64,000 bases of DNA from NCBI GenBank assembly GCA_965214245.1, contig CBDCBL010000009.1, forward strand, positions 961,422-1,025,421, written 5' to 3'. This DNA is from Acidobacteriota bacterium. Its GTDB lineage: Bacteria > Acidobacteriota > UBA890. The notes under the pieces were generated by a model, which was not told the origin of the DNA, searched no databases, and worked only from the letters and a program-made list of their open reading frames with translations. Positions 17,296 to 61,753 of this stretch are shown piece after piece. Position 1 is the stretch's first letter. Each line of letters begins with the position of its first letter. A program made the position numbers and the translations under genes.

Positions 17296-17323
17296 TCTTG
17301 TGTCTCCGACCTCGCCCTCTTGC

Positions 17324-18483: not shown

Positions 18484-18733
18484 TTATCCCCCTTCTCGAA
18501 CCCGTCTGAGAGCCTCAAATCCTAACTCTTAAACTGGCCCGACTATTGGGGGGCAGGTCACAGGCGCTCCAGCATGCAACCACGGAGTTGCAACGCTGGC
18601 TCATGAGCGACTACGGCTTCGACGAGCGCGGCGCCCTCGCTGCTGATGGGGCACGCGATGGAGTACGAGATTGCGCAGGTGGTCGACCCGACCTTTACGG
18701 TCGTGGCGAAGATGAGGAAGGATTTGTTGCCGT

Positions 18734-32829: not shown

Positions 32830-33696
32830 CTACTCCTGCACGCCATCTACTTCGAGCTCACCGCGCTCGAACAAGTAGACGGTCTTCGACTCGCCGCGAT
32901 CGTCCAGCCGGGTGCGGGCACACTCGCGGGCGAAATACCCTTTCGCAAAGTATCCGGTGAAGACGGCCCGCGTCGCCTCCCGCCACGCGGTCGCGACACC
33001 GTGGTCGTGCTCCTTGACCTCCTGGACGCTGCCCGGGATCTCGCAGCGCAAGCGGCGGGCATCGAGATCGAGGTTCGGCTCGCCGGGCGCCCAGCCATCG
33101 GCCTGCAACACCCACGGGGCATCGACGTCACCGACAACCAGCGACTCGAACAATTCGGAACGTCGCCCTTCCTGGAGCGCCGCAACGCGTGGCGAATCCA
33201 TCATCCACTTGAGCGTCAGGCGATCGGTGGTCGTTCCGGAGTGCAGCCTGCTCGTGGTCGCGCCGTACAGATTGACGTCGTAGTGATCGGCCAAGCCACC
33301 GAGCTTGCCGAAGTTCAGACAAGCGTTCTTCGATTCGAGCGGATCAAACGTCCACACCATGATCACAAGTCCCCCCGCCAGGCAGATGTCCCGCTGCGCC
33401 CACTTCAGCCGCGTGCCCAGCCCCGCGTCTTGTGCTTCGTCATCGACAGCGAGCATGTGCGAGCAGTGCACCACGCGCCCCTGGTTGTCACGACCCAGGA
33501 ATCCGTAGCAAAAGCCGCGCAACTCGTCGTCGGCGTCGAATGCCCCGAGGACCAATCCGCCCCATTTCTGGGCCGTGACCAGATTGGTTTGGGGGATGAT
33601 GTCGATATCGTCGGCAAATGCCCACGCCTTGGATTGCAGTCGCTCGCACGCCTTGTATTCCTCGAACGTCTCGAGGCGCCTCAATGTGTAGCTCAT
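32830..33696 (-). CDS. GNAT-like acyltransferase-fold protein; tentative. It is translationally coupled upstream of the enolase-superfamily gene.
   Basis: 'VVHCSHMLAVDDEAQDAGLGTRLKWAQRDICLAGGLVIMVWTFDPLESKNACLNFGKLGG' resembles GNAT motif A / B. A 3-nt gap separates it from the downstream gene. Confidence 0.5.
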   Translation of the reverse strand: MSYTLRRLETFEEYKACERLQSKAWAFADDIDIIPQTNLVTAQKWGGLVLGAFDADDELRGFCYGFLGRDNQGRVVHCSHMLAVDDEAQDAGLGTRLKWAQRDICLAGGLVIMVWTFDPLESKNACLNFGKLGGLADHYDVNLYGATTSRLHSGTTTDRLTLKWMMDSPRVAALQEGRRSELFESLVVGDVDAPWVLQADGWAPGEPNLDLDARRLRCEIPGSVQEVKEHDHGVATAWREATRAVFTGYFAKGYFARECARTRLDDRGESKTVYLFERGELEVDGVQE

Positions 33697-41374: not shown

Positions 41375-43036
41375 ATGAGCATCAAGATCTTCCGTGGCGC
41401 TGAGATCCTCACGCTTGATTCGGACACCCCGACCGTCGAGGCACTGCGTGTCGAGGGGGAGAAGATCACCGCTGTCGGCTCGCTCGACGAGGTCGACGCC
41501 GCGTCGGCGGACGAAACGATCGACCTCGAGGGTGGCTGCCTCATTCCCAGCCTCAAGGACCATCACCTGCATCTGACCGCGGTCGGGCTTGCCCTCTTGA
41601 ACGCCGAAGAAGACGAGCGGGTGAACCTCGACCTGGCGGGCGCCGCCTCAGCCGACGAGATCGTCGAGCGCGTCCGCGAACGAGCAAGCCGGGTGGAGCC
41701 GGGTCTCTGGATACTCGGCATGGGATGGAACCAGCACGACTGGGGCACGCCCGAGTTGCCGTCGCACGAGGCGCTGAGCGTCGCGGTTCCGGACCACCCC
41801 GTGTTCCTGGTTCGTATCGATGCCCATTCGGCTTGGGTAAACGACGCGGCGATGCGCGCCGCCGAAATTTCCGAGATGGATACCGATCCTTACGGCGGCG
41901 AGATTCGCCGTAATGCCGGCGGCGCCCCGTCGGGCATGTTACTCGAGCGCGCCGTCGAGCCGGTGCTCGACGAGATCCCCGGACTCGCCGGCTGGGAAAT
42001 ACGCGCGGCGTTCGGCCATGCCGCCGACGCGCTGGCGGCGCGCGGCGTGACCGAGGTTTTCGACGCCGGCTTCATGGCCAGCCCGGCGATGGTCAGCATG
42101 ACGGTCGATTTCGAGCTCTACCTCGAGCTGCTGGCGTGGTCCGATGCCGAGTCGCCGCTCGCCGTCGACGTGAACTTGATGATCCCGTCGCCGAGCCCGC
42201 TGGCCGACAAGATCGTCGCCGATCCCGACGCCTATCGGGAGCTTTCGCCGCGCCACCGGGTGACCCATATCAAGCTCTTTGCCGACGGTGCTTTCGGCAG
42301 CCGAGGCGCCGCGCTCGGCCATCCATACGTCGACGACCCGAGCACCCGCGGCTTCATGTGTATGAGCGATGCGGAATTGCTGCACGAAACGCGACGCGCC
42401 ATCGAGGCCGGCCTCGACATCTCCACGCATGCCATCGGCGACGATGCCGTGCATCGGGTTCTGAACGCCTACAGCACGGTGGCCGATGCCACCGGCGCCG
42501 ACCCCCGCCGTTTCCGCATCGAGCACTTCGCCTATGCCTCGGCTGACGACATCCGTCGCGCCGCTGCAGCGGGATTCGTGCTCGTCGCGCAGCCACAGTT
42601 CATCGACCCCGACGCCAACGGCAAGGCGATGGAGGACTGGCGGCTGGGAGCGGAGAGCGGCGATCGGGTGTATCCGTGGAAGACACTGCACGACCTGGGT
42701 GCCAACCTGGCGATGTCGTCGGACTACTACATCGCCCCGGGCCCGGCGCTTCTCGATTTCTACGTTGCCTTCTCGCGCTGCAACCGGGAGGGACTGCCGA
42801 ACGACGGCTGGCAGCCGCAGGAGCGACTATCCCGCGTCGAGAGCCTACGCATGGCAACGGCGCTACGCCCGGCTGGCGGCGGCGATCAGCGCGGCGGCGT
42901 GCTGCGCGCCGGAGAACCGGCAGACCTGGCGTTGCTGTCGGCCAATCCCCTCACCGCAGATCCGTTGGAGATTCTCGGGATCGATGTAACGGCGACATTC
43001 CGCCGCGGCGAGCCCACTTTTCCCGACTCGGGCTAG
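41375..43036 (+). CDS. Amidohydrolase_3-family metal-dependent hydrolase.
   Basis: 'DHHLHLTAVG' (HxH), the later 'IDAHSAWVN', and the 'HAIGD' and 'IEHFAYAS' metal-ligand motifs. Confidence 0.8.
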   Translation: MSIKIFRGAEILTLDSDTPTVEALRVEGEKITAVGSLDEVDAASADETIDLEGGCLIPSLKDHHLHLTAVGLALLNAEEDERVNLDLAGAASADEIVERVRERASRVEPGLWILGMGWNQHDWGTPELPSHEALSVAVPDHPVFLVRIDAHSAWVNDAAMRAAEISEMDTDPYGGEIRRNAGGAPSGMLLERAVEPVLDEIPGLAGWEIRAAFGHAADALAARGVTEVFDAGFMASPAMVSMTVDFELYLELLAWSDAESPLAVDVNLMIPSPSPLADKIVADPDAYRELSPRHRVTHIKLFADGAFGSRGAALGHPYVDDPSTRGFMCMSDAELLHETRRAIEAGLDISTHAIGDDAVHRVLNAYSTVADATGADPRRFRIEHFAYASADDIRRAAAAGFVLVAQPQFIDPDANGKAMEDWRLGAESGDRVYPWKTLHDLGANLAMSSDYYIAPGPALLDFYVAFSRCNREGLPNDGWQPQERLSRVESLRMATALRPAGGGDQRGGVLRAGEPADLALLSANPLTADPLEILGIDVTATFRRGEPTFPDSG

Positions 43037-43209
43037 CCGCGGCGAGAGATCCCTCGAGGCAGCCTGTGGTCCGTCGACCGTACAAACCGTCAAAAGGGAT
43101 TGAATCCACCCCCCCCCTGGGTCGTCAAACTGTGCACACACGTACGTCTTCGTGCCCACTACGACACAGAAAATCGGCGCACTTGGTCAGCACGGAGAGG
43201 GGTTTGGGA

Positions 43210-43593
43210 ATGGGGTGGCGGACAGCTGTACTCGCAATTTGCCTTGTTGCGACGGGCGCTTGCCGTATGGACGGTGTCGAAGTGATCCCCATGCCGGACG
43301 GACTCATCGGTACCTGGGAAACGGACAATCTCGAGTACGCTGACCGCTTTTTTACTTTGTCGACAGACGAGTTCGAGCTCCTCCTGATCGGCACGGGCAC
43401 TTCGATCCCGGCACGCTACCAGATCGATGCCGTGACCAGGATACGCGACGACATCGGCCTGCTGCACACGATCGAGTACTCCGATACCGACGGCACGGAC
43501 TACCACATGGCGTTCTATTACGACCCCGCTGGCGATGGGAACCTCAGGTTGAAGAACCAACTCAACATGACTTGGCGAAAGAAGGGGCGCTAG
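43210..43593 (+). CDS. Small lipoprotein (about 127 aa), hypothetical.
   Basis: 'MGWRTAVLAICLVATGAC' contains a lipobox. Its stop codon abuts the ATG of the next gene. Confidence 0.5.
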   Translation: MGWRTAVLAICLVATGACRMDGVEVIPMPDGLIGTWETDNLEYADRFFTLSTDEFELLLIGTGTSIPARYQIDAVTRIRDDIGLLHTIEYSDTDGTDYHMAFYYDPAGDGNLRLKNQLNMTWRKKGR

Positions 43594-44187
43594 ATGGCCG
43601 CGAAGCCCTACAAGCGCCGGCGAATTCTCATCGATCGGCTGCAAATACGGCTGCTCACCATTACGTTGCTGTATTTCACCGCCGCCGCCACGATCTTCGT
43701 GGCGGCGCTGTTTACACCCCTGATGTTGCAGCTCACCGGCGAGACCGAAACGCCCCAAGCACGAGCCGCCATTGCCACCGAGTTTCTCACCCTGCACACG
43801 CGCTTCTGGCCGGCAATCCTGCTCACGTTCGGGTTGCTTGCGGTGCACTCGATTTTCACGTCGCATCGCATCGCCGGCCCGCTGTTCCGCTTCCGCATGG
43901 TCTTCAAGGAGATGCAGGACGGCAACTTGGTGCCGTTCGCCAGCATCCGCGAGCGCGACCTGCTGGGCAATGAAGCCGCGGCTCTCAACGCCATGTTGGT
44001 GTCGCTGCGCGAACGCGTTTCCGGCATTGCCGAGGAGCAGCGCTACTCACGAGAACAGTTCGAGCATTTGAGGAGGGCTATCCGATCCAACTCGGAAGAG
44101 GATGTCGCCTCTCATATGACCGGCCTGGAGGAAGGTTTGACCGGGCTCGGCGAACGGCTCGGCGGCTTCAAGCTAAGAAAGAGCTGA
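43594..44187 (+). CDS. Membrane protein with two transmembrane helices, a HAMP-like segment and a coiled coil, but no output domain.
   Basis: Two hydrophobic helices, then 'SHRIAGPLFRFRMVFKEMQDGNL', which is a HAMP AS1-like signature, then a helical tail. Confidence 0.55.
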   Translation: MAAKPYKRRRILIDRLQIRLLTITLLYFTAAATIFVAALFTPLMLQLTGETETPQARAAIATEFLTLHTRFWPAILLTFGLLAVHSIFTSHRIAGPLFRFRMVFKEMQDGNLVPFASIRERDLLGNEAAALNAMLVSLRERVSGIAEEQRYSREQFEHLRRAIRSNSEEDVASHMTGLEEGLTGLGERLGGFKLRKS

Positions 44188-44289
44188 ACCATGGATGCGC
44201 GTCCGCAGCCGATGATTATCTCGAGGGCCCGCCGGGCCTCGGTACGGGCCCGGCTCGAGCCACGGCTGCGCAACCCGCTGCTGCACGAC

Positions 44290-44772
44290 ATGCGGCGCTC
44301 CTGGAGCAGGGCGTTCTCGATGATCGAGATTCTCATTATCGTCGCCATTCTGGGTACCATCGTGGCAATCGCCCTGCCCCAATACATGGAGTCGCTCGAC
44401 AACGCGCGGGTGGCACGCGCCATCGGTGACATCGTGGCGATGAGCTCGGAAGTCGGCCTCTTCTGGTTCGACAACGGCAGGTATCCCACCACCCTCGCGG
44501 AAATTGGTCGCGGCGCCATGGAGGACCCGTACGGCCAGGCCTACTTCTACAAGGACCTCGTTGCTGCCGCGAAAGGCGGCGGCAAGGGCGGTGGGGGCGC
44601 CAGCGCCGGCGGCCGCAAGGACAGGTTCATCGTTCCGGTAAACTCCGACTTCGACCTGTACAGTGCGGGAAAAGATGGAACCACGGTCTTGGCGTTCACC
44701 GCCAAGACAAGCCTCGACGACATCGTCCGGGCCAACAACGGCGGCTTCATCGGCCTCGCCGAAGACTTCTGA
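44290..44772 (+). CDS. Type II secretion major pseudopilin (GspG) or type IV pilin-like protein.
   Basis: The prepilin-type N-terminus is 'RAFSMIEILIIVAILGTIVAIALPQY'. The GspG-like body includes 'ARVARAIGDIVAMSSEVGLFWFDNGRYPTTLAEI...DPYGQAYFYK...FDLYSAGKDG'. The start is uncertain; the ORF opens at 44191. Confidence 0.7.
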   Translation: MRRSWSRAFSMIEILIIVAILGTIVAIALPQYMESLDNARVARAIGDIVAMSSEVGLFWFDNGRYPTTLAEIGRGAMEDPYGQAYFYKDLVAAAKGGGKGGGGASAGGRKDRFIVPVNSDFDLYSAGKDGTTVLAFTAKTSLDDIVRANNGGFIGLAEDF

Positions 44773-46958
44773 TGCCCAACAACCCGGAGCCCGATCAGTC
44801 GACGCCGCAAGCGGCGTCGCGCTGGACCCTGCTGACCAGTAGGGTCGCGCGCCGCATCTTCCTGCTGTTCATCGTTTGTGCCCTGGTGCCGATCACGGTG
44901 CTCGCTGTGTACTCCTTCAGTCGTGTCAGTAGCCAGCTATACGAGCACGGCGAGGAGCGGCTCCACGACGCAGTGCGGGCAACCGGACAGGGCATCGCCG
45001 AGCGTCTCCTGTTGCTCGAGGCCGAGCTCCGCCTCCTTCCGGGCCTCCCCCCTGTGGAGCCGGAGACAGAAGTAGTGGCCGGGTCGGAAGAGTTCAATTG
45101 GGTGACCGGCGCTCGCTTTCTGAGCGTTGCCGCGGTTGACGGCGACGAAGCCACGTTACTGCGCGGATCGGCAGCGGCCCCCGTTCCCGAACTCGGCCCG
45201 GCCGAACGAGCTCACCTTGCCGGCGGTGGCACCGTGCTGTGGACTCAGATTCTCCCGGGAGCGCCGCCGCTCATCGTGCTGGTTCAGCAGCCCGACCACG
45301 ACGCCCCGGGGCGGCTGCTCGTCGGGTGGGTCGATCCGCGTTTCGTGTGGGCCGGCGGCGCCGGCTCGTTGCCGCGCAACACCGAGCTCTGCGTTTTTGA
45401 CCACACGCACGCCGCTCTGTTCTGTACGCGCCCAACCGACGGCGTCGTGCCCCCTGACGTTCATGCGGAGATCGAAGCAGGGAATTCGGACAACTTCGAG
45501 TGGGAGATCGACGGCGACGAGTACATCGCCAGCCGCTGGGCCATGCCACTGGCCTCTCAATTCGTCGTTCCACAATGGACGATGATGCTGAGCGAAGCAA
45601 AGGCCGACTTGTTGAAGCCGATGGATGCTTTCCGCCGCGCCTTTCCGATGGTCATCTTGCTGTCGCTGTGGCTGGTGGCGTTGCTCAGCGTCCAGCAGAT
45701 CCGCCGCAGCTTGGTGCCGCTCGAACGTCTCCACGAAGGCACGCGCCGCATCGCCAAGCGCGAATTCGACGTCAGCGTCGAGATCGACAGTGGCGACGAG
45801 TTCGAGGAACTGGCGGACTCGTTCAACCGCATGGCGGGACGTCTCGACAAGCAATTCACGGCGCTGGCAGCCATCGCCGACATCGACCGGACCATCCTGT
45901 CGAGCCTCAACATCGAAGAGATCGTCGAAACGGTTCTCTTTCGTATGTCTGATCTGGTCGCCTGCGACTCGGTGAGCGTGACGCTGATGTCCCCGGACCA
46001 ACAAAAAGTACCCCGCACCTACACCCTTCCCCCGGGCGCCAAGTTTCGCCCTTCGGTCGAGACCACGTTCTTCACCCAGGCCGATTTTCGTCGCTTCAGC
46101 CGCTCCCCGGTGCATTCGAAAATCGAGCCGGGCACCCCGATTCCATCGTTCGTGGCGCCGATGGCGCGCGCCGGCTGCAAGCGCTTCGTCGTCCTGCCGA
46201 TGTTCATCCGCGAGGAGGCGTCGGGCGCTATCGCTCTCGGATTTATCGAGGCGCCGACCTACCACGACGATGATCTCGAGCAGGTGCGCCAGCTTACCGA
46301 TCAGGTCGCCGTAGCCTTGGCGAACACGCATCTCGTGGAAGATCTCGACGCGCTCAACTGGGGAGCGTTGACGGCGTTGGCCCGCGCTGTCGATGCCAAG
46401 TCACCGTGGACCGCGGGCCACTCCGAGCGGGTCACCAGCATGGGCATCCGGCTCGGCGACAAGCTGAAGCTCACCGCCGACGAGATCGACATCCTGCACC
46501 GCGGCGGCCTGCTCCACGACGTCGGCAAGATCGGCGTCCCCGCGGCGATCCTCGACAAGCCCGGCAAGCTCACCGATGAGGAATTCGACATCATGAAGCA
46601 GCACCCGGCGATCGGCGCCAACATCCTGCAGCCGATTGCCGCCTACGCCGACGTCCTGCCGATCGTCCGCCACCACCACGAGCGCTGGGACGGGGCGGGA
46701 TATCCCGACGGCCTGGCCCACAAGAAGATTCATTTTTTCGCGCGCATTTACGCGGTGGCCGACGTCTACGACGCCCTCGTGTCTGATCGTCCGTACCGCG
46801 ACGGATTCTCGCTCGAGAAGATCATTGCGATGATCGTCGAGGGGCGCGGCAGCCATTTCGATCCCGAAGTGGTCGATGCGTTCCTCCGCGTGATGGAGGA
46901 CGAAGCCGAGCAAGCCGAGCAAGCCGAGCAGGTCTCCGAAGCCGTCGAATCACCCTGA
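44772..46958 (+). CDS. Membrane sensor with a periplasmic domain, a transmembrane segment, HAMP, GAF and an HD-GYP phosphodiesterase domain.
   Basis: An N-terminal transmembrane segment ('IFLLFIVCALVPITVLAVY') and a second ('MVILLSLWLVALLSV') flank a region of roughly 270 aa. HAMP is at 'RRIAKREFDVSVEIDSGDEFEELADSFNRMAGRL'. The HD-GYP core is 'HSERV...LLHDVGKIGVP...RHHHERWDGAGYPDGL'. The C-terminus carries an EQAEQAEQ repeat. Confidence 0.85.
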   Translation: MPNNPEPDQSTPQAASRWTLLTSRVARRIFLLFIVCALVPITVLAVYSFSRVSSQLYEHGEERLHDAVRATGQGIAERLLLLEAELRLLPGLPPVEPETEVVAGSEEFNWVTGARFLSVAAVDGDEATLLRGSAAAPVPELGPAERAHLAGGGTVLWTQILPGAPPLIVLVQQPDHDAPGRLLVGWVDPRFVWAGGAGSLPRNTELCVFDHTHAALFCTRPTDGVVPPDVHAEIEAGNSDNFEWEIDGDEYIASRWAMPLASQFVVPQWTMMLSEAKADLLKPMDAFRRAFPMVILLSLWLVALLSVQQIRRSLVPLERLHEGTRRIAKREFDVSVEIDSGDEFEELADSFNRMAGRLDKQFTALAAIADIDRTILSSLNIEEIVETVLFRMSDLVACDSVSVTLMSPDQQKVPRTYTLPPGAKFRPSVETTFFTQADFRRFSRSPVHSKIEPGTPIPSFVAPMARAGCKRFVVLPMFIREEASGAIALGFIEAPTYHDDDLEQVRQLTDQVAVALANTHLVEDLDALNWGALTALARAVDAKSPWTAGHSERVTSMGIRLGDKLKLTADEIDILHRGGLLHDVGKIGVPAAILDKPGKLTDEEFDIMKQHPAIGANILQPIAAYADVLPIVRHHHERWDGAGYPDGLAHKKIHFFARIYAVADVYDALVSDRPYRDGFSLEKIIAMIVEGRGSHFDPEVVDAFLRVMEDEAEQAEQAEQVSEAVESP
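46905..46931 (+). repeat. Three copies of a 9-bp tandem repeat (GCCGAGCAA / GCCGAGCAG) encoding AEQAEQAEQ at the C-terminus of the HD-GYP sensor.
   Basis: Direct reading of the sequence. Confidence 0.8.
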
Positions 46959-47015
46959 CGTAGGCGTAGCCCGGACTTGTCTACGAGATACGTCGCGCAG
47001 TAGCCACCCGTTGAG

Positions 47016-48254
47016 CTAACGCTCGCCGACGGCCGTTTCGAGAGCCCGGTCCAGATCGCCGATCAAGTCGTCGACGTTTTCGATGCCGACCGAAAGCCGC
47101 ACCAAGCCTTCGGTGATTCCCATGTAGCCACGCCGCTCTTCCGGGAGATGCCGGTGGGAGGTCATCGCTGGAATCAGCACCAGACTCTCCAAATCGCCGA
47201 GCGTGCTCACCGGTCGCCACAGTTCGAGCGTGTCGAGGAAGCGGCGCGTCGTCTCGCCGGTTGCGCCGACGATCTCGAAGGCGACCAGGGAGCCGTAGTG
47301 GCCGTGCGGGAACAGACGCTCGAGCGTCGCCTGTTCGCGCGGGTTGTCGCGGCGTCCGACTCCCGGGTAGTGAACCTGCTCGACAGTATGATGCGTATTC
47401 AGGTGGGCGGCGATCTGTTGCGTATTGGTGCACTGGCGCTCGACACGCAGCGGCAGCGTGCGTATGCCGCGCAATACCAGCCAGGCGGTAAACGGATCCG
47501 CGATCGTGCCGTCGAGCTTGCGCCGCGCCTTGGCAGCTTCGATGAGCTCAGCGGATCCCGACAGGACCCCGGCGACGACGTCCCCGTGACCGCCGAGAAA
47601 CTTGGTGGCCGAATGCGCGACCAGCGTCACCCCGTGCTCGATGGGCCGCAGCAAGCAAGGTGGCGTGAACGTGGCGTCGACGATCAACGGCACGTGGGTG
47701 TCACGACAAGCCGGACCCAAAGAATCGAGGTCGACAAGGTAGGTCAGCGGATTCGACAAGGACTCGCAATACACAGCCGCCGGCGCCTCGTCGCGCACCG
47801 ACTTCGAGGTAAACGAGCGGTCGGCAAAGTCGACGTAGACAATCTGCCAGTCGTTGCGCTCGGCTTCCCGCTCCAGCCAGGTAATCGTGGTGCCGTACAG
47901 GTCACGGGCCGTCAATATCTTGGAGCCTCGCGGCAGGTCGAGGGCAGCGAAGGCGCCGGCGATCGCCGCCATGCCGGACGAGTACGCCGCCGCGCTTTCA
48001 GCCCCTTCGAGGTCGGCGATCGCCGCTTCGAGCGCGTCGACCGTCGGGTTGTGGTAGCGGCCGTAGACGTAACCGCTGCGCTCGCCGGCGTAGACCTTGT
48101 CGATCGCGTCGGCGCTGTTCTGCTCGAACGCGGAGCTGGCGTAGATCGGCGTGGAGGTCGGCGTACCGACAGCGGGCTCTACGTCCTTGCCGGCTCGCAC
48201 GGCGCGGGTGTCGAAGTGCCGGGTACGGCCCTCGTCGCCCGCTGTGTCGCTCAC
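47016..48254 (-). CDS. Cys/Met-metabolism PLP-dependent enzyme (cystathionine gamma-synthase / O-acylhomoserine sulfhydrylase-like).
   Basis: 'PIYASSAFE' at the N-terminus, the PLP-lysine motif '[18 protein letters not shown]', and 'VHYPG' at the C-terminus. The ORF's Arg-rich N-terminal extension was rejected. The start is taken at the GTG near 48254, adjacent to the sucD stop. Confidence 0.8.
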
Positions 48255-49147
48255 CCGGTGTCCGTACCCTCGCCGGTGCCGAGAATGTCGCCCATCGTCG
48301 CGCCGATGGCCGCCGGGCTCTCGACCACGGTGGCTCCCGCCTCGGACAGAACCTTCATCTTCTCGTCGGCGGTGCCTTTGCCACCGGCGATGATGGCGCC
48401 GGCGTGACCCATGCGCTTGCCCGGTGGCGCGGTGCGTCCGGCAATGAACGCGACGACGGGCAAAGGGTAGTCGTCGGCCAGATAGGCCGCCGCCTCTTCT
48501 TCCGCCGTTCCGCCGATTTCGCCGATCAACACGACCCCGTTGGTTTGCTCGTCCTCGGCAAACATCTCGAGGCAATCCTTGAACGTCGTACCGATAACGG
48601 GATCACCCCCGATTCCTACGGAGGTCGACTGGCCCAAACCTACGCGGGTCAGCTGGTCGACGGCCTCATATGTGAGGGTGCCGCTCCGCGAGATTACGCC
48701 CACAGACCCCTCCTGGTGGACGAATCCAGGCATTATGCCGACCTTACACTGCCCCGGCGAAATCACGCCGGGGCAGTTGGGCCCGACTAGGCGGGTGCCC
48801 CGATCGCGGCAGTAGGCGACCGTGTCGACCATGTCGAGCGTCGGAATGCCTTCGGTGATGCAGATCGCCAAGCGTACGCCGGCGCCGGCCGCCTCCATCA
48901 CCGCGTCGGCGGCAAAAGCCGGCGGCACGAAGATCAGCGACACATCGGCGCCCGTCTCGCCCACCGCCCTCTCGACGGTGTCGAACACCGGCACCGAAGC
49001 CTCGAAATTCTGACCGCCCTTGCCGGGCGTGACGCCCGCGACGATCTGCGTGCCGTACTCGATGCACTGCTTGGCGTGGAACGAACCTTCGGATCCCGTG
49101 ATGCCCTGCACCACAACCTTGCTGTCGGCGTGAACCAGGATGCTCAT
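48251..49147 (-). CDS. sucD: Succinate--CoA ligase, alpha subunit.
   Basis: '[17 protein letters not shown]', the CoA-binding region and the phosphohistidine loop 'GHAGAII' are present. Confidence 0.9.
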
Positions 49148-50472: not shown

Positions 50473-50491
50473 TTCACCACGGCCTGCTAGG
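50473..50491. repeat. Copy 2 of the 19-bp exact repeat TTCACCACGGCCTGCTAGG. It overlaps the TAG stop of the DAHP synthase gene, in the 170-bp gap before sucC.
   Basis: Identical 19-mer at 22483-22501. Confidence 0.6.
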
Positions 50492-51506
50492 CTATCGATC
50501 TTCCCAGCGCCGGCGCGATCTGCCGCAGCTGCTCCATGAGCTCCTCGAACTGCTCGGGGTAGAGCGACTGGGGACCGTCCGACATGGCCTTCTCCGGGTT
50601 CGGGTGGACCTCGATCATCAGCCCGTCGGCGCCCGCCGCCACGGCGGCACGGGCCAACGGCGCCACCTTGTCGCGAATGCCGGTCGCGTGGCTCGGATCG
50701 GCGATGATCGGCAAGTGTGTCACCTGCTGCACCACCGGAATCGCCGAGACATCGAACGTGTTGCGCAGGGCGGTCTCGAACGTTCGGATACCGCGCTCGC
50801 AGAAGACCACCTTGTGGTTGCCGCCGGCCAGGATGTACTCCGCCGACATCAGCATCTCTTCGATGGTCGCCGACAACCCGCGCTTCAACAGCACCGGCTT
50901 GTCGACCTTGCCCAGAGCCTTGAGCAACGAGAAGTTCTGCATGTTGCGGGCGCCGACCTGGAAGATGTCGACATATTCGCTCATCAATTCGACCTGCGAG
51001 GTGTCCATGACCTCCGACACCGTGCCCATGCCGTGCGCATCGGCAGCCTCGCGCAGGAAACGAAGCCCTTCGCCGCCCAGCCCTTGAAACGAGTACGGCG
51101 ATGTACGCGGCTTGTAGGCGCCGCCACGCAACACTTTGGCGCCGGCCTTGGCAACGATCTCGGCGACCTGGTGGATCTGTTCTTCGCCTTCTATCGAGCA
51201 GGGGCCGGCCATCACCACCACGGATTCATCGCCGATGCGCGCGCCATCGATCGAAATCACCGAGTTCTCGGCCCGAAACGAGCGCGACACCAGCTTGTAC
51301 GGCTTGCTGATGCGGAAGACTTCCTTGACGCCGTCGAGAACCTCGAGCTCGCGAGGATCGACCTCTTCAACGTTACCCCCTACCGCACCAACCACCGTGC
51401 GCTCGGCCCCGCTGGATCGGTGGGCGTCGAAGCCGAGCGCCGTCAACCGTTGAATGACGTGTTCGATCTGGGGCTCCGAGGCGCCCTGTCTCATGACAAT
51501 GACCAT
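50487..51506 (-). CDS. 3-deoxy-7-phosphoheptulonate (DAHP) synthase, type I-beta, with an N-terminal regulatory domain.
   Basis: DAHPS-family barrel motifs are present: '[10 protein letters not shown]', '[18 protein letters not shown]', 'VGARNMQNF', 'KRG'. The start is taken at 'MVIVMRQG'. Confidence 0.85.
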
Positions 51507-51549
51507 GCCGTTTCCTCCCAGCCCCCGCACGAGAGCTTTCGTTATCGTG

Positions 51550-51858
51550 TCAACTCTTGTCATCGCTCTTGTGAACAAATCTTTCGAGGCGCCGCGCCTC
51601 ATCGAGGATGCGCTCGAAAAGACGCCGGATGGCGCCGTCATCGAGCGGGCCCTTATTGGCGGCGACCACGCTTTCGAAGATCTTCTCTTCCCGATCCGGC
51701 TGATAAACAGCCTCGCCCAGGACCTCCTTGGCGTCGCCGATGCGCTGCACGTGCGTCGCCCGCTCGCTCAGCAGACGCACGATCTCCTGGTCGATTTTGT
51801 CGATTTCGACGCGGGCCGCGTCGATCGCGCTGGGCGCGCTATCCTTCGGATCGTTCAT
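51550..51858 (-). CDS. Chorismate mutase (AroQ class).
   Basis: '[26 protein letters not shown]...REEKIFESV' matches AroQ helical-bundle motifs. It sits between trpA and the DAHP synthase gene. Confidence 0.7.
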
Positions 51859-52718
51859 GTCTTTGTTCCCCCGCCAGGGTTGTTCGTTTCCGCGAGTTCG
51901 TCTGCCGCGGCACGCAGCGGCGCGAGCACGCGAGCCGCCGCGATGGCCGGATCGTCGCCATCCGCCTCGATTGCGTCAATCAGGGCGCTGCCTACCACGA
52001 CGCCGTCGACGTGTGGTCCCAACGCCGTGACGTGGGCGCCGCGCTTGATGCCGAAACCGACCACGAACGGCTTGACCGCCAGCCGTCGCATCCGCTGCAG
52101 GAATTCTATAGTTCGATCGTCGATAACGCTGCGCGCCCCGGTGACCCCGGTAACGGTGACGCAGTAATTGAAGTGCGTCGACGCCTCGTCGACCTTCAGA
52201 ACGCGATCATCGGGGGCGTTGGGGGCAACCAGAAACGTCGCTGATAAGCCATGTTGCCTGCAGCCTTGCAGGTAATCGGCCGCCTCGTCGGGTGGCAGGT
52301 CGGGGACGATCAGCCCATCGACACCCGCGGCCACGGCGTCGGTGAAAAATCGATCCAAACCGTAGGCGATGAGGGGATTCAGGTATCCCATCAGCACTAC
52401 CGGGGTAATCAAGGCGTCGCCGCGCAACTCGCGTACAACGTCGAGTGTACCCGCCACGGTCGTGCCGTTGCGCAGCGCCACCTCGCTGGAGCGCTGGATG
52501 GTCGGGCCGTCAGCCAGCGGATCGGAGAAGGGCATACCGATCTCGACGATATCGGCGCCGGCTTCAGCCATCGCCGCGACGATGGGTCGGGTTGCGTCGG
52601 CAGTCGGATAACCGGCCGTGACGAACGGGATCACCAGCGGTCTACCAGCCGCGCGACCGGCGGCAAACGCCGCCTCGATGCGCGTGCCGCCTCTCGGTTC
52701 GCTCGTCAGGTCGTTCAT
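51855..52718 (-). CDS. trpA: Tryptophan synthase, alpha subunit.
   Basis: 'IPFVTAGYP...[22 protein letters not shown]' is the canonical TrpA sequence. Confidence 0.9.
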
Positions 52719-53949
52719 CGACGCAGGTCCTGGTCGGGGTGGGCTTCGAGATGCCCGGCGATGGTCTCGACGTCTTTGTCGCCGCGCCCCGAGAGGCAAA
52801 CGACGATTCGGTCATCGCTGCCGAGCTCGCCACCGGCGGCCATCTCGTAGAGCTTGGCGATGGCGTGGGCGCTCTCCAGCGCCGGGATGATCCCGTCGCC
52901 GCGCGACAGTCGTTGCAGCGCTTCAACGGCCTGCCGGTCGGTAACCGCCGTGTAGGCGACGCGACCCGAGTCCTTCAGGAAGGAGTGCTGCGGCCCGACG
53001 CCGGGATAGTCGAGGCCCGCCGAAATCGAATGCGCCGGTTCCACCTGACCGTCGGCGTTCTGCAGCAAGTACGAGCGCGCACCGTGCAGCACGCCAACCC
53101 GGCCGCGGCACAGGGTGGCGGAGTGTTCGCCGCTGTCGACCCCATGACCAGCGGCCTCCACCCCCATCATGCGGACGTCGTCATCGAGCCACTCGGCGAA
53201 CAAGCCCATCGCGTTGCTGCCACCGCCGACACAGGCGAGAAGCAATGTCGGCGGCGCTTCACCGGCAGCCGCTAGCTGCTCCTTGACCTCGCGACCGATG
53301 ACCGCTTGAAAATCACGTACCAGAGCCGGATACGGGTGCGGGCCGACGACCGAGCCGAGTATGTAGAACGTCGATTCGACGTTCGTTACCCAGTCACGGA
53401 TGGCCTCGTTGGTAGCGTCCTTCAGCGTTCGGCTGCCCGAGGAAACCGGCACCACCCGGGCCCCCAGCAGCTCCATGCGGAACACGTTCAGGCGCTGGCG
53501 GCGCATGTCTTCCTCGCCCATGTACACGGTGCAATCGAGGCCGAACATCGCGGCGACCGTGGCGCTGGCGACACCGTGTTGCCCGGCTCCGGTCTCGGCG
53601 ATGACGCGCTGCTTGCCCATGCGCTGCGCCAGCAGTCCCTGCCCGATCGTGTTGTTGATCTTGTGTGCCCCGGTGTGCAAAAGGTCCTCGCGCTTCAACC
53701 AAACCGCGGCGCCGCCGAGCTCTGCGGCGAGGCCCGGAGCCGCGTACAACGGCGTCGGGCGGCCAGCGTAGTCGCGAAGCAAGAGGTCCAGCCGTTCGTT
53801 GAACCCAGGATCGCACATCGCCTCGGCGTGGGCTTCCTCGAGCTCTACCAGCGCCGGGATCAGCGTCTCGGGGACGTAGCGGCCGCCGAACTCGCCGAAG
53901 CGACCGCCTTCGTCGGGAAGCGATGCGTGCGTGATCGAGTCGCTCATCG
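52715..53949 (-). CDS. trpB: Tryptophan synthase, beta subunit.
   Basis: '[15 protein letters not shown]...[16 protein letters not shown]...GAGQHGVA' is the canonical TrpB sequence. The long upstream ORF extension, which overlaps trpF and trpC, was rejected. Confidence 0.9.
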
Positions 53950-54576
53950 GTAGGCCTCCAGCGCCACGGCGAAGCGGCGTAGCTCGTCGTGGTCTTTGCG
54001 GCCCGGGCTCTCCTCGACGCCGGAGGAAACGTCGATTCCCCATGGCCTCACGCTCTCGACGGCAACGGCCAGGTTGTCGACGTTGAGGCCGCCGGCCAGA
54101 ACGACGCAGTGGGATCCGGCCAGCGCCGCCGCCACCGGCCAGTTGGATTTCTCTCCCGTGCCGCCGTACTCGCCGGGTACCGACGCGTCCAGCAGCAGCG
54201 TGCAGTCCGCGTACGCCGACGCCCGCTCGGCGGCCTCTTCTGCGGAGGTCTCCGTTGACAAGCGCAACGCTTTCCACGACGGGCGGGGCGCCGCGGCACA
54301 GACTTCGGGCGACTCGTCGCCGCTGAGCTGCACGAGGTCGAGCGGCACCCGGGTGGCGGCGGCGGCCAGCTCCTCGATGGACGCGTCGACAAACACACCG
54401 ACCTTGTGCACGGACTCGGGCACCTGCCGCGCGACTTCCGCCGCGGTATCGAGATCGATGAGCCGCGGGCTGTGCGGCCAGAACACGAAGCCCAGAGCGT
54501 TGGCGCCGGCAGCCACTGCGGCGCGGGCGTCGGCCTCGTTGGTAATGCCGCAGACCTTCCAGTACAAGCCGCTCAT
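53944..54576 (-). CDS. trpF: Phosphoribosylanthranilate isomerase.
   Basis: '[32 protein letters not shown]' is typical of TrpF. Confidence 0.85.
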
Positions 54577-55442
54577 AGCAAGTGCGCCCCCTCGAACGGA
54601 CCCGGGGTCGATGCCTCACTCGCCACCTCAGACTCGGCCGCAGCGGCGCCCGCATCGACGAGCTCGCGCAGAATATCGCCCGGCTCCTCCGCCGTGACCA
54701 GCGCCGTGCCCACGAGCACGGCGTCGAATCGGGCCGCGGCGACGCGGCCAACGTCAGCCGCCGCCGAGATTGCACTCTCCGCCACCGAAACGACGTCGCC
54801 CGGCAACTCCTCCGCCAGCCTGATCGCGTGCTCGGAGTCGACCTCCATGGTGTCGAGATTGCGATTGTTGATGCCCACCAAACCGCTTGCCGCTTGCACC
54901 GCGGGTACCAACAACTCGGGACGATGAAACTCCACCAACGCATCGAGACCGACGCTATGCGCCGCCTCGACGAACTCCGCGAGGGCTGCGCCGTCGAGCA
55001 GCTCGGCGATCAGCAGCACGGCCGAGGCTCCGGCGCTCGCCGCGCGGAAAATCTGGTACAGCTCGACAACGAAGTCCTTGCGTAACGTGGGCAGCTCGAG
55101 GCTGGCGCTAACCGCCTCCAGATGATTGATCGAGCCGGCGAAAAATTGCTCCTCCGTGAGCACGGAAATCGCCGCCGCGCCGCCGTCAGCGTAGCAGGTC
55201 GCCAGCTCGAGGGGCTCGAAGGGATCGCGCAACGTGCCGCTGAGCGGGCTCGCGCCCTTCACCTCGGCGATCACCGAAACGCCGGGCGGCCGCAGGGCAG
55301 CTCGGAATCTGCCGGGACCGCCGCTGCGCGCTCCCAGCGCTTCGGTCTCGCTGCGCAATGCGGCTTCCGACACATGCCCCCGTTGGCGCGCGGTGGTAAA
55401 CCGCGCCGCCTCGACGAGATCGGACAGGTGCAAGCGGCTCAC
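54573..55442 (-). CDS. trpC: Indole-3-glycerol-phosphate synthase.
   Basis: '[13 protein letters not shown]', 'LRKDF', 'LLIA' and 'GINNRNL' are IGPS signatures. Confidence 0.85.
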
Positions 55443-56458
55443 GCTACCGCCTCGCCGGTCGCCCGGATCAGCTGGTCGAGTCGCTCGCCTGCTTCGCCGC
55501 TGTCAATCGCGCCCCGGGCCATTTCCAGCCCCTGCGCCAGATCGGCGGCGGAACCACTCGCGTAGATCGCGGCGCCGGCATTCAGCAGCACGATATCGGC
55601 GTGCGGTCCCGGCTCGCCATCGAGAATCCGGCGCACCACGGCGGCATTTTCCTCGCCATCGCCTCCGGCCACCTGCTCCGCCGTTGCCCGTGGCAAACCC
55701 AGATTCTCGGCGTCAATCTCATACGTACGGACGTCCACCCCATCCCACTCGGCAACGCGGCTGGGACCGAGTGTCGACAGCTCGTCGAGCCCACCGGCGC
55801 CGTGAACCACGAGTGCCCGAACCGCACCTAGCTCGCCCAGCACCCGGGCCAGGGTCTCGGTCAGTGTGCCGTCGTACACGCCGACGAGCTGGCGGCGCGC
55901 CCCGGCCGGGTTGGTGAGCGGACCGAGCACGTTGAATATCGTGCGGATCGCCAGCTCCCGGCGCGGTCCGACGGCATGCTTCATCGCCGGGTGCTGGAAC
56001 GGCGCGAAGAGAAAGGCGATCCCCACCTCGTCGAGGATTCGTGCCTGCCGCCCTGGATCGTCGATCAACGTCACGCCGAGCGCTTCGAGCACATCGGCGC
56101 TGCCGCATTTGCTCGATACCCCACGGTTGCCATGCTTGGCCATGCGTACGCCGGCGCCCGCGGCGACGAGCGCCGCGGCAGTCGAGACGTTGATCGTCCC
56201 GGCACCATCGCCGCCGGTTCCCGCCGTGTCGACGAGATCGTCGGTGGCGACCTCGACACGAACGGCAGCGGCGCGCATCGCCTCGGCGCTGCCGGCGATC
56301 TCATCGACGGTTTCGCCCTTCATGCGCAGCGCCACGAGGTAGCCGGCCACCTGCGCCGGCGTGGCATCGCCTTGCATGATCGTTTGCATCGCCGCGCGTG
56401 CCTCCTCGCGCGTCAGATCGACGCCGCGCACCGCACTGTCGATGGCCGTCTCGAGCAT
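55439..56458 (-). CDS. trpD: Anthranilate phosphoribosyltransferase.
   Basis: 'DTAGTGGDGAGTINVSTAAALVAAGAG...AKHGNRGVSSKCGSADVLEALG' is typical of TrpD. Confidence 0.9.
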   Translation of the reverse strand: MLETAIDSAVRGVDLTREEARAAMQTIMQGDATPAQVAGYLVALRMKGETVDEIAGSAEAMRAAAVRVEVATDDLVDTAGTGGDGAGTINVSTAAALVAAGAGVRMAKHGNRGVSSKCGSADVLEALGVTLIDDPGRQARILDEVGIAFLFAPFQHPAMKHAVGPRRELAIRTIFNVLGPLTNPAGARRQLVGVYDGTLTETLARVLGELGAVRALVVHGAGGLDELSTLGPSRVAEWDGVDVRTYEIDAENLGLPRATAEQVAGGDGEENAAVVRRILDGEPGPHADIVLLNAGAAIYASGSAADLAQGLEMARGAIDSGEAGERLDQLIRATGEAVA

Positions 56459-56463
56459 CGCGC

Positions 56464-57078
56464 TTATTCCCCTCCGCCGGCAGATCGATTGACGGAGGCG
56501 GGCTCCGCCGCGCCCGCGGCGATCAAGAAATTCCGCAGCATTTGCGGACCGTCGGGCGTGGCGATCGATTCCGGATGAAACTGCACGCCGTACAGTGGCC
56601 ACTTACTGTGCCGGATGCCCATCACCAACCCTTCGTCGGTCCAGGCGGTGACCTCGAGCTGCTCCGGAAGCCGGTCGCGCTCGACGACCAGCGAATGGTA
56701 GCGCGCCGCCTCCAAAGGTTCGGGCAGGCCGGCGAACAAACCGTCGCCGTTGTGATGCACCTGGCCCGTCTTGCCGTGCACCACCACGGGAGCACGCTGC
56801 ACGACGCCGCCCAGAGTCGCCGCGATCACCTGGTGCCCCAAGCAAACCCCGAGTGTGGGCACCGTCGGCCCCAGATGTTCGACGAGCTCGCAGCAACAGC
56901 CCGCGTCCTCGGGCCGCCCGGGACCCGGCGACATGACGATCGCGTCGGGGGCCAGCTCGCGAACAGCGTCGACGTCGACCGCGTCGTTGCGGCGCACGTC
57001 GACGTCGACACCGAGCTCGCCGAAGGCCTGCACGAGGTTGAACGTGAACGAGTCGTAGTTGTCGATGACCAGGATCAT
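56464..57078 (-). CDS. trpG: Anthranilate synthase component II (glutamine amidotransferase).
   Basis: 'MILVIDNYDSFTFNLVQ...GVCLGHQ...HSL' gives the class-I glutamine amidotransferase triad. Confidence 0.85.
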   Translation of the reverse strand: MILVIDNYDSFTFNLVQAFGELGVDVDVRRNDAVDVDAVRELAPDAIVMSPGPGRPEDAGCCCELVEHLGPTVPTLGVCLGHQVIAATLGGVVQRAPVVVHGKTGQVHHNGDGLFAGLPEPLEAARYHSLVVERDRLPEQLEVTAWTDEGLVMGIRHSKWPLYGVQFHPESIATPDGPQMLRNFLIAAGAAEPASVNRSAGGGE

Positions 57079-58640
57079 GACGAGACTACGCTGTCGAGGT
57101 TTTCGGGCGGTGCCACGGTCGCCTCTTCGGCCTCGGTGGCCCAGGCCAGGGCCTGCAACGCCGCCGCCGCCTTCTGGTTGGTCTCGTCGTACTCGCGCGT
57201 CGGCACCGAGTCGGTGACAATGCCGGCACCGGCCTGCACGTGCGCGCGGCCGTCCTTCATGACGATCGTGCGGATGGCGATACACGAATCGAGATTGCCG
57301 GCGAAATCCGCGTACAAGATGGCCCCCGCGTACACACCGCGGGCCTGGGGCTCGAGGTCGTCGATGATCTCCATCGCGCGGATCTTCGGCGCACCACTCA
57401 CCGTACCCGCGGGGAAAGCGGCGAACAGCGCCTCGAATGGGCCGAGCTCCGACCGCAGCATCCCCTTGACGCTGGAGACGATATGCATGACGTGCGAATA
57501 GCGCTCCACGATCATGTACTCCGGCACCTCGACGGTACCGTATTCGGCCACCCGGCCGACATCGTTGCGACCCAGGTCGATGAGCATCAGATGCTCGGCG
57601 CATTCCTTTTCGTTGGCGAGAAGTTCCGCTTCCAGCTCTTGGTCCGCGGCGGGATTCGCGCCGCGCGGCCGGGTGCCGGCGATCGGCCGATTCTCTACCA
57701 CGCCGCCGCTGACCCGCACCAACATTTCGGGTGACGAACCGACGATGTGGGCGTCGCCGGTATCGAGCAGGAACATATACGGCGACGGATTGATGGCACG
57801 CAACGCCCGATACACGCTCAGCGGCGGCGCCGTCGTGCGGCGGCTGAGGCGCCGCGACAGCACGATCTGAAACGCGTCGCCGGCAGCAATGAGCTCCTGG
57901 GCGGCGCTCACCACGTCGCAGAATTCATCGTGTCCGAGGCTCTCGTCGACGTCTTCGCCGATCTCGAGGTCGATCCCCGTTCGATCGCCATGGATCCGAT
58001 CGAGCGGTGCCGCGTCGCGCGGCTCAGCGTCGAGCACCGCCGACAGCTCCCCCAACCGGTCGATTGCCTGCTCGTACGCGCGGCGCAGCTCGGTTTCGCC
58101 GGCGCCGGCCTCGATGCGTGCGTTGGCCACCAGAACGACGCGATGGCGCAGGTGGTCGAAGGCCAGCACCGTGTCGTAGTAAGCGAGGCTTACCCACGGC
58201 ATGTCGGGATCGGACGAATTGGCAGCCGGGATGCGTTCGACCCAACGGACGGCGTCGTAGCCAATGTAGCCCACGGCACCGCCGGTAAACGGCGGAGCTC
58301 CCGGGGCCGGCTCGGCACGATACCGGAGCTGCAAAGCGGCCAGCGCCTCTACGGGGTCGCCCTCGATGCGTCGCTCGGTGCCGTCCGGTTGGCGCTCTGT
58401 CAGCCCATCGGCATCACCCTCGACCTCGAGAAACGGATCGCCCCCCAGAAACGAATAGCGCCCGATGTGCTCGCCGCCCTCGGCGCTCTCCAGCAGGAAC
58501 GGGCGTCGCAAGCGACCGATGATGCGCAGGTAGGCGCCAACCGGCGTCAGCAGGTCGGCCAGGCGCTCGGCGCACACGGGCACGAAGTTCCCCCGTTTCG
58601 CCGCGGCGGCGAAGTCTTCGAAATCCGGGAACACACGCAT
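57075..58640 (-). CDS. trpE: Anthranilate synthase component I.
   Basis: '...FQIVLSRR...GTRPRG...IDLGRNDVGRV...GAPKIRAMEIIDDLE' are chorismate-binding enzyme motifs. The start is taken at 'MRVFPDFEDF'. Confidence 0.9.
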   Translation of the reverse strand: MRVFPDFEDFAAAAKRGNFVPVCAERLADLLTPVGAYLRIIGRLRRPFLLESAEGGEHIGRYSFLGGDPFLEVEGDADGLTERQPDGTERRIEGDPVEALAALQLRYRAEPAPGAPPFTGGAVGYIGYDAVRWVERIPAANSSDPDMPWVSLAYYDTVLAFDHLRHRVVLVANARIEAGAGETELRRAYEQAIDRLGELSAVLDAEPRDAAPLDRIHGDRTGIDLEIGEDVDESLGHDEFCDVVSAAQELIAAGDAFQIVLSRRLSRRTTAPPLSVYRALRAINPSPYMFLLDTGDAHIVGSSPEMLVRVSGGVVENRPIAGTRPRGANPAADQELEAELLANEKECAEHLMLIDLGRNDVGRVAEYGTVEVPEYMIVERYSHVMHIVSSVKGMLRSELGPFEALFAAFPAGTVSGAPKIRAMEIIDDLEPQARGVYAGAILYADFAGNLDSCIAIRTIVMKDGRAHVQAGAGIVTDSVPTREYDETNQKAAAALQALAWATEAEEATVAPPENLDSVVSS

Positions 58641-58926
58641 GCACCTTGACCGTTCTGTCAACGGCCCAGCCTCCGTCGTTTTATTTGTCAGGGAAAAGCG
58701 AAGAAACGGAAGCCGGCCCCTACCGGGTCCAGGACCAATATCGCCAGGCGTACGGGGCCAGCATAGACGGAGCGGGCGCGCCGAGACGGCGGTGCCGGAT
58801 TGCGGTGATGTCGCGCATAGCGGTCGCTCCGTTGATGAAGCAGGATGGTAGCAACGTCGCGACACGACGGTCAATCGGCGCGGCAGTTTTAGCGTTGCCG
58901 TACCGACAGCTCTGCGAGCCGGCGGG
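58641..58926 (-). promoter_or_regulatory. 286-bp region immediately 5' of trpE and containing its promoter. No Trp-codon leader peptide or attenuator was recognised.
   Basis: This is the only sizeable non-coding gap in the trp / aro block. Small hairpins are present (for example CCGTT-gacag-AACGG just upstream of the trpE ATG). No functional element identified. Confidence 0.3.
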
Positions 58927-59757: not shown

Positions 59758-59780
59758 GTCGCTCTCCTCATGGGTCGGCG

Positions 59781-61322: not shown

Positions 61323-61342
61323 TGAGTCATCGTCCGCCGCGG

Positions 61343-61753
61343 TCACGCCGAGTCTCCTTCGATGGTCAGGGGGACGAAGCGGTCCCGCTCGAAGCGCCAG
61401 CACGCCGAGTTCGTCGATTCGCCGCCGGCGCAGGCGACGATCAGATAGAGCCAACGACCCCAGGCGTCTTGCCGATCCGTGCTCGAGGGTTCGGGCACGC
61501 CGTCGGGGTGAGAGTGATAAACGCCGAGCAGATCCTTGCCATTGCGAGGCGCTGCGCGCATCGCCTCGAACACCTGGTGAGCGTCGATGTGAAAGCGGTC
61601 GTCACGGGAAGCCCGATTGACGGCCGGTCGGGCCGCCTCGATCGAGTAGCCCGAGCCCTTGTCCTCACCCAGAAGAAACCCACAGGCTTCGGCCGGGTAG
61701 CGGCGGCGACACTCCTCTTCCACCTGCGCGCTGACCGAGTCGGGAACGCGGAC
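61343..61753 (-). CDS. JAMM/MPN+ metalloprotease of the Mec+ / CysO-type deconjugase family.
   Basis: 'EACGFLLGE' and 'LLGVYHSHPDGVPEPSSTD' form the JAMM motif E...HxH...S..D. The start is uncertain within about 25 nt. It lies immediately downstream of thiF / moeB. Confidence 0.75.
   Translation of the reverse strand, partial: VRVPDSVSAQVEEECRRRYPAEACGFLLGEDKGSGYSIEAARPAVNRASRDDRFHIDAHQVFEAMRAAPRNGKDLLGVYHSHPDGVPEPSSTDRQDAWGRWLYLIVACAGGESTNSACWRFERDRFVPLTIEGDSA

Follow-up and report, generated by a model that had tools for sequence, protein, structure and literature searches.

Introduction

In the LuxP-LuxQ system a partner protein is read by the tandem PAS domain of the sensor, and in the envelope module YfiBNR (TpbB) control over a cyclic diguanylate (c-di-GMP) enzyme with two transmembrane (TM) helices, a periplasmic domain and HAMP is exerted by a lipoprotein together with a small periplasmic protein. 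Pilins, too, can be read as signals. In Pseudomonas aeruginosa the inner-membrane pilin PilA is read directly by the sensor PilS through an intramembrane contact (Kilmury and Burrows 2016, as cited in PMC6058289), in Caulobacter crescentus the membrane pool of PilA activates PleC-PleD and raises c-di-GMP (PMC7196804), and minor pilins together with PilY1 act on FimS-AlgR (PMC5979040). Here we analyse a four-gene locus at positions 43210-46958 of a 64-kb stretch of Acidobacteriota DNA (contig CBDCBL010000009.1; the whole stretch is hereafter called the window). At its core stands a GspG-like prepilin gene followed directly by the gene of a membrane sensor, and this pairing is conserved across many phyla. 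We lean, somewhat past the point of even chances, towards a dedicated pilin-plus-sensor signalling module in which the pilin is the membrane-anchored signalling partner of the sensor input.

Organisation of the locus

The four genes, named g1-g4, were read as open reading frames (ORFs) with lengths in amino acids (aa):

43210-43593, plus strand: g1, lipoprotein, 127 aa
43594-44187, plus strand: g2, two-helix HAMP protein, 197 aa
44191-44772, plus strand: g3, GspG-like prepilin, 193 aa
44772-46958, plus strand: g4, HAMP-GAF-HD-GYP sensor, 728 aa

A GGAG sits about 12 nucleotides (nt) 5' of the g1 ATG. The stop codon of g1 (TAG, 43591-43593) is followed by the ATG of g2 at 43594 with no nucleotide between them, three nt (ACC) separate the TGA of g2 from the ATG of g3 at 44191, and the stop of g3 and the start of g4 overlap by 1 nt within TGATG (44770-44774). 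The initial annotation of the window had proposed such a tight four-gene unit, composed of a lipoprotein, a HAMP-only two-helix protein, a GspG-like prepilin and a HAMP-GAF-HD-GYP sensor; all coordinates and junctions were reproduced and each of the four assignments stands. Public gene calls are identical for g1 (P0330, 127 aa) and g3 (P0001). The third-position G+C (GC3) of g1-g4 is 0.79-0.84, like that of the neighbouring genes and typical for genes of this window of 65% G+C. The Rfam scan of positions 42800-47200 revealed no RNA elements and, therefore, no c-di-GMP riboswitch in that interval. A promoter scan detected nothing at the locus, and terminator-like sites there were not above chance.

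Conservation of the pilin-sensor pair

About 970 relatives of the pilin were found by a search with g3, and a scan with one genome per species placed a relative in at least 585 species. With only the 93-aa C-terminal head as query, 448 clusters at 50% identity were retrieved with E<=1e-10. The matches listed include Acidobacteriota, Gemmatimonadota, Desulfobacterota, Methylomirabilota, Nitrospirota, Aminicenantes, Verrucomicrobiota and Beta-/Gammaproteobacteria; among them, the closest relatives come from metagenome-assembled genomes of Acidobacteriota, and Curvibacter sp. PAE-UM (locus L053) is a cultured carrier, in which the pilin is paired with a GGDEF-EAL sensor. Database names for the family are only ‘general secretion pathway protein G’ or ‘prepilin-type cleavage/methylation domain-containing protein’. 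One apparent relative, P0181, matched in 14 stretches and was rejected as an ankyrin-repeat protein producing a repeat artefact.

Linkage was counted over 79 loci of different species with at least 1.5 kb of sequence 3' of the pilin gene. In 75 of them the next gene encodes a sensor with a g4-type periplasmic domain and HAMP, mostly at a distance of -4 to +16 nt from the pilin, and the flanking genes are unrelated between loci. The homologues are, in other words, syntenic for the pair, and of the four exceptions at least one is due to an artefact of ORF calling. Starting in reverse from the periplasmic domain, we examined three sensor homologues (two kinases and one HD-GYP protein), all three of which have a T2SSG-like gene just upstream.

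The domains behind the shared input differ. The partner carries GAF-HD-GYP in 31 loci, HD-GYP in 14, (GAF-)GGDEF-EAL in 21 and a hybrid histidine kinase in 7, and simple HAMP-HisKA-HATPase kinases also occur among the sensor homologues. Because one type of periplasmic domain is joined to varying outputs, it is the input module that the pilin is linked with, and not c-di-GMP in itself. The description of the locus as a c-di-GMP-linked module in the initial annotation must be revised in this respect: c-di-GMP does not define the module, whose core is a pilin with a double-Cache/HAMP input and whose outputs include histidine kinases. Both HD-GYP motifs are kept in 47 of the 48 HD-GYP domains of family partners. 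The idea that all partners are phosphodiesterases with a degenerate GGDEF was ruled out, GGDEF being intact in 11 of the 21 GGDEF-EAL partners.

Several loci depart from the simple pair. In one of the exceptions, from Methylomirabilales (L015:2239-3543), two genes of the pilin family lie in tandem, and no sensor can be recognised downstream of them. On two near-identical metagenome contigs (L005:8001-12371 and L006:8001-11150), DDE transposases split or interrupt the HD-GYP sensor gene that lies downstream of the pilin; the module is decaying in that lineage. Loci of the Aminicenantes type (L036:3698-10992, L043:29-7735 and L075:4459-8929) combine two sensor and g1 sets with a single pilin, in the order sensorA-g1A-(g2)-pilin-sensorB-g1B, from which it follows that one pilin may serve two sensors.

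The pilin-like protein

The product of g3 divides into a leader and a mature part:

44191-44313, plus strand: leader of 41 aa, Arg-rich, ending in WSRA before the predicted prepilin-peptidase site (A-1 / F+1)
44314-44772 (including the stop codon), plus strand: mature part, GspG-like pilin, starting with FSMIE and carrying E+5 and P+22

The N-terminus reads RRSWSRA and continues with FSMIEILIIVAILGTIVAIALPQY. The lack of a class III signal had been named in the initial annotation as a refuting observation; by F+1, E+5 and P+22 the N-terminus is of that type, although atypical in that Ala replaces Gly at -1 and the leader is unusually long. The leader sequence is conserved in relatives whose mature parts share 62-84% identity, and the start was therefore kept at 44191. 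An internal ATG at 44290, which would leave a leader of 8 aa, was judged less likely in view of this protein-level conservation and of the gene calls and overlaps in relatives. Of the 77 family members with a recognisable site, 58 have Gly at -1, 18 have Ala and one has Ser. P+22 is kept in 73 of 77 members, and F+1 and E+5 in every member identified.

Curated libraries cover this protein in part and contain no model of its subfamily. PF08334 (T2SSG) passes its cut-off of 21 with 28.5 bits, the match being confined to positions 2-38 of a 108-position profile, PF07963 (N_methyl) scores 14.8 bits against a cut-off of 21.2, and TIGR01710 reaches 47.5 bits, compared with a GspG equivalog cut-off of 88.85, with an alignment limited to residues 40-101. 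The family profile of g3 likewise matches solved pilins and pseudopilins over the alpha1 helix only. In the structure model, the globular head adopts a GspG-type fold.

In the mature protein the alpha1 helix is followed by a small beta head, then by a Gly-rich loop and by a C-terminal region of high conservation, RKDRF(L/I)VPxNSDFDLYSxGKDG...DDIVRANNGGFIGL. Conservation within the pilin is highest in this C-terminal head, with 3.41 bits per column versus 2.85 for alpha1N. Exposed major pilins exhibit the opposite pattern, their heads being less conserved than alpha1N. Residues D155, D162, D176 and D177 are invariant in the alignment of relatives and could form a calcium-binding site as in the C-terminal loop of GspG.

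The sensor

The following parts were distinguished in g4:

44772-44912, plus strand: N-terminus plus TM1 (residues 1-47); conserved motif L.S.VARR...LF..CAL.P
44913-45611, plus strand: periplasmic domain, residues 48-280, modelled as a divergent, family-specific double-Cache (tandem PAS-like) fold
45612-45857, plus strand: TM2 (residues 281-305) and HAMP (306-362), from PF00672 at 51.4 bits and the structure model
45909-46319, plus strand: GAF, residues 380-516; PF01590, PF13185 and PF13492 all above their cut-offs
46377-46871, plus strand: HD-GYP, residues 536-700; PF13487 (HD_5) at 123.9 bits, motifs LLHDVGK and HHERWDGAGYP intact

The Pfam match to HAMP spans residues 310-359, and the intact motifs make the HD-GYP domain a predicted c-di-GMP phosphodiesterase. 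The periplasmic part has no family in Pfam, NCBIfam or PADLOC; Pfam returned none at E<=0.1 for residues 1-305, and none was precomputed for any homologue. The structure model of residues 1-370 (predicted local distance difference test score, pLDDT, 81) contains, in this order, TM1, a long helix spanning residues 24-87, alpha/beta modules at 116-187 and at 204-276, TM2 and HAMP. According to this model, the periplasmic domain is a divergent double-Cache, with a long N-terminal helix and two PAS-like modules between the two TM helices. A large periplasmic domain had been expected here, and it is present with about 233 aa (residues 48-280), not the roughly 270 aa first assigned to it.

Conservation, measured in bits per column over 67 sensors below 80% identity, is 2.68 for HAMP, 2.58 for TM1, 2.14 for TM2, 1.59 for the proximal Cache module and 1.39 for the distal one, the least conserved structured region of the sensor. 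That TM1 is conserved to the same degree as HAMP suggests that it has a specific partner within the membrane, for which the equally conserved alpha1N helix of the pilin would be the obvious candidate. One may guess that the sensor residues R27/R28 are level with the pilin residue E+5, both being at the cytoplasmic membrane face.

At the 3' end of g4 there is a 9-nt tandem repeat (three copies of GCCGAGCAA, 46905-46935), which encodes AEQAEQAEQ in the C-terminal tail.

Accessory genes

The product of g1 has a signal peptide and Cys19 in the context LVATGAC (MGWRTAVLAICLVATGAC), where Thr at -3 is atypical; from this lipobox it is predicted to be a small periplasmic lipoprotein. The Cys aligns with [GA]-C in most homologues, and G34, W36, Y43, N116, Q117 and W122 are conserved. 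No family was found for g1 in Pfam, NCBIfam or PADLOC, and a profile search of PDB sequences gave nothing below E 0.7. A search of a large protein collection returned close relatives only, which is the word-matching limit of that search.

The product of g2 consists of two TM helices, a HAMP-like segment at about residues 91-148 (nt 43864-44037) and a coiled coil, with no output domain. It likewise has no family in Pfam, NCBIfam or PADLOC, and Pfam missed the HAMP when given the single sequence. Profile comparisons recover it: TM2 and the following segment align with TM2-HAMP of the sensor in hhalign at 94.9% (E 4.3e-8), and the g2 profile matches residues 190-318 (TM2-HAMP) of Tsr, 6s1k, in hmmsearch with E 5e-8. 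Invariant residues are G95, P96, R119, D122 and N132.

Profile searches for g1 and g2 were run on the 62 loci with full flanks and filtered against cross-matches to the HAMP of the sensors themselves. By type of partner, the counts are:

HD-GYP partner, 38 loci: g1 in 29, g2 in 13
Histidine kinase partner, 9 loci: g1 in 8, g2 in 1
GGDEF-EAL (proteobacterial) partner, 13 loci: g1 in none, g2 in none

The position of g1 varies, being upstream of the pair, between its genes or downstream, and pilin-sensor-g1 is the commonest order. The order g1-g2-pilin-sensor occurs in 5 of the 62 loci; the four-gene arrangement of the window, initially regarded as a potentially conserved unit, is therefore a minority form. 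The core is made of two genes, pilin and sensor, with g1 as a frequent third member and g2 as an optional fourth.

In some lineages g2 and the pilin are fused in frame, as in locus L073 and in at least seven separate clusters at 50% identity (those checked being P0200, P0217, P0222, P0260, P0305, P0313 and P0319); among the 150 best representatives, about 16 are of the length that fits the fusion (347-431 aa). The fusions keep an intact G / F(T/S)LIE motif between the g2 and pilin parts. Their topology is consistent, leading from the cytoplasmic C-terminal end of g2 into a pilin helix oriented N-in and C-out. Members of the fusion clade (P0200, P0217, P0305, P0319 and L073:7248-8516) also carry a CxxCxxxC motif (e.g., GTCHACTNTCVPPGAARKDR) in the Gly-rich loop of the pilin head, where it may have a metal, redox or disulfide role on the periplasmic side; g3 of the window is without it.

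Genomic context

Among the ORFs of the window, g3 is the only one with a class-III-like signal. No type II secretion system (T2SS) families and none belonging to type IV pili were found by Pfam among 30 large ORFs of the window or in its annotated 11.5-kb copy L001, and none of this machinery occurs in about 10 Pfam-annotated neighbourhoods of relatives. A second class-III ORF lies within 8 kb in only 4 of 78 pilin loci. The pilin had been called an orphan, and so it is, with no gsp or pil cluster beside it in the window or in those annotated neighbourhoods.

The neighbouring genes of the window are of housekeeping type: a trp operon, sucCD, aminoacyl-tRNA synthetases and sugar-nucleotide enzymes, besides two insertion sequence (IS) integrases. 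The aromatic/tryptophan cluster on the minus strand (50487-61454) encodes DAHP synthase, TrpA, a PALP-domain ORF, IGPS, TrpD, TrpE and a fused dehydroquinase-shikimate dehydrogenase; the PALP-domain ORF, which has a long N-terminal extension, is probably TrpB. Three mechanically called ORFs (47016-48575, 52715-54943 and 57075-58991) have N-terminal extensions of 100-350 aa without any domain, so that the genes probably begin further downstream than called. Two ORFs with rve-family integrase cores (334 and 285 aa) and a 163-aa ORF between them lie on the minus strand at 15803-18181 and look like IS elements within housekeeping DNA; transposases also flank or interrupt the module in relatives L004-L006. 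Four further ORFs, at 6551-7981, 8006-8998, 18546-20399 and 32830-33696 (476, 330, 617 and 288 aa), have gene-like codon bias and no Pfam match at E<=1e-5.

Proposed mechanism and alternative explanations

In the mechanism that we favour, g3 would be made as a prepilin, inserted in the inner membrane by its hydrophobic alpha1 helix and probably cleaved by a prepilin peptidase encoded elsewhere. It would build no filament of its own and would act as a co-receptor or ligand for the input module of g4. The TM helix of the pilin may pack against the unusually conserved TM1 of the sensor, which would bring its conserved periplasmic head beside the membrane-proximal half of the double-Cache domain. 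A change in the state of the pilin, possibly the binding of an envelope or periplasmic cue, or capture or release of the pilin by the g1 lipoprotein, would then pass via TM2 and HAMP to GAF-HD-GYP and alter c-di-GMP hydrolysis; in relatives the same input would drive GGDEF-EAL enzymes or histidine kinases. The two-helix HAMP adaptor g2 may work with the cytoplasmic N-terminal side of the pilin, to which it is fused in some lineages.

Three points weigh against this reading. The retained G/A-1, F+1, E+5 and P+22 would be expected if the protein were still a subunit that type IV filament machinery processes and polymerises. A conserved interface between pilin head and Cache domain is not evident, because the periplasmic domain of the sensor is weakly conserved. 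Finally, the divergence of the pilin head correlates with that of the sensor periplasmic domain (Pearson 0.67), which proves little, since co-inherited neighbours are expected to correlate.

The first of these points leads to the alternative that survives best, namely that g3 is a real filament subunit, extracted from the membrane by a T2SS or type IV pilus machine encoded elsewhere, and that g4 reads the membrane pool by a TM-TM contact and thereby couples secretion, pilus activity or surface contact to c-di-GMP. The predicted GspG-like fold and the high conservation of the sensor TM1 would both fit, and direct precedents exist (PMC7196804 and PMC6058289). What keeps this explanation alive is the retention of the two assembly features, E+5 in all members and P+22 in 73/77. 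It must be set against a pilin head that is more conserved than alpha1N, the absence of minor pseudopilins or machinery near any examined locus, Ala at -1 in 18/77 members, the 41-aa leader of the window protein and the fusions to g2, whose two extra TM helices would block extraction unless cleaved off. We regard pool sensing as unlikely and favour a resident co-receptor because of the conserved head, the solitary pilin, the common Ala at -1 and the fusions with a two-TM adaptor.

c-di-GMP controls pilus and secretion ATPases in other bacteria, and g3 shares an operon with an HD-GYP enzyme that looks active from its motifs. The pilin could accordingly be seen as cargo, a structural gene product controlled by the sensor via c-di-GMP and without protein contact. 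Such a relation would have to accommodate outputs that are interchangeable and include histidine kinases, which produce no c-di-GMP, together with the strict co-occurrence of input and pilin; no pilin-free sensor appeared among the three reverse checks, and the fusion of the pilin to the HAMP adaptor also points to signalling and not to cargo. As the link is to the input module and survives the exchange of the output for a kinase, we find a purely regulated target improbable. The initial annotation had left it open whether the pilin is a ligand for the sensor or regulated by it; comparative genomics favours the former, a ligand or partner, and disfavours the latter.

That the locus is a coincidence or assembly artefact, with a pseudogene-like GspG remnant beside an unrelated sensor, might be suspected for the assembly of an uncultured organism and for a pilin covered by Pfam and TIGR models in its N-terminal part only, and is refuted almost beyond doubt by the synteny (the pair kept in 75/79 loci of many phyla), the same protein on several independent contigs of up to 1.36 Mb, the 448 clusters retrieved by the C-terminal head alone and the GC3 values matching those of neighbouring genes.

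The dedicated pilin-sensor module may also be placed in a wider frame, which we offer tentatively and with less confidence than the module itself. The type IV pilin fold would have been taken over as a receptor subunit that forms no filament and, together with the double-Cache/HAMP transducer, the lipoprotein and the HAMP adaptor, would constitute a new class of heteromeric envelope receptors in many phyla. Cleavage of the prepilin might then be a step of maturation or signalling, the two-helix HAMP adaptor of the fusions acting as a leader of about 200 aa.

Significance

Envelope inputs to c-di-GMP networks are largely obscure, and for the majority of the periplasmic sensor domains that c-di-GMP enzymes carry no signal is known. 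The module provides a genetically testable handle on this question, as a sensor family whose input comes with one specific pilin-fold partner, and the cultured Curvibacter sp. PAE-UM makes it available for study. If our reading is right, the concept of pilins as signals, so far confined to a few model organisms and to pilins of complete pili, would extend to a dedicated and widespread receptor architecture, and many proteins annotated as ‘general secretion pathway protein G’ would be unrelated to secretion. The fusions of g2 and pilin raise the question of whether a prepilin peptidase cleaves at an internal site behind a two-TM HAMP protein. Full-text literature searches returned no paper on a pilin-plus-Cache or pilin-plus-HAMP module, an absence that is no proof in itself.

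Comparison with known systems

In contrast to GspG, the g3 family has an extra Gly-rich loop of variable length, an RKDRFLVPxNS insertion and a C-terminal extension, NNGGFIGLAxx(F/Y). It falls below the GspG equivalog cut-off, with only the N-terminal 60 or so residues aligning, and the clade of the window has Ala at -1 and the 41-aa leader. Furthermore, the family was not found in any gsp operon among the examined loci, where the sensor adjoins the pilin instead.

The partner in LuxP-LuxQ is a soluble periplasmic binding protein, whereas g3 would be membrane-anchored with a pilin fold. YfiBNR differs from the module of the window in that the parts are not homologous; it has a soluble YfiR, an OmpA-like YfiB and a cyclase as output.

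With PilA-PilS the module would have in common an inner-membrane pilin that a membrane sensor reads through an intramembrane contact. PilS, however, has six TM segments and no periplasmic domain, whereas g4 has two TM helices and a 233-aa domain modelled as a double-Cache; PilA of P. aeruginosa is the major subunit of a complete pilus, whereas g3 is an orphan; and the output there is pilA transcription, here c-di-GMP enzymes or kinases. The Caulobacter PilA is a Tad/Flp-type pilin of a full pilus locus, the genes of pilin and sensor are not adjacent, and the route, unlike that of g4, runs through a kinase and a response-regulator cyclase. What this system would share with the module is a membrane pilin that signals to a sensor with a periplasmic domain and changes c-di-GMP.

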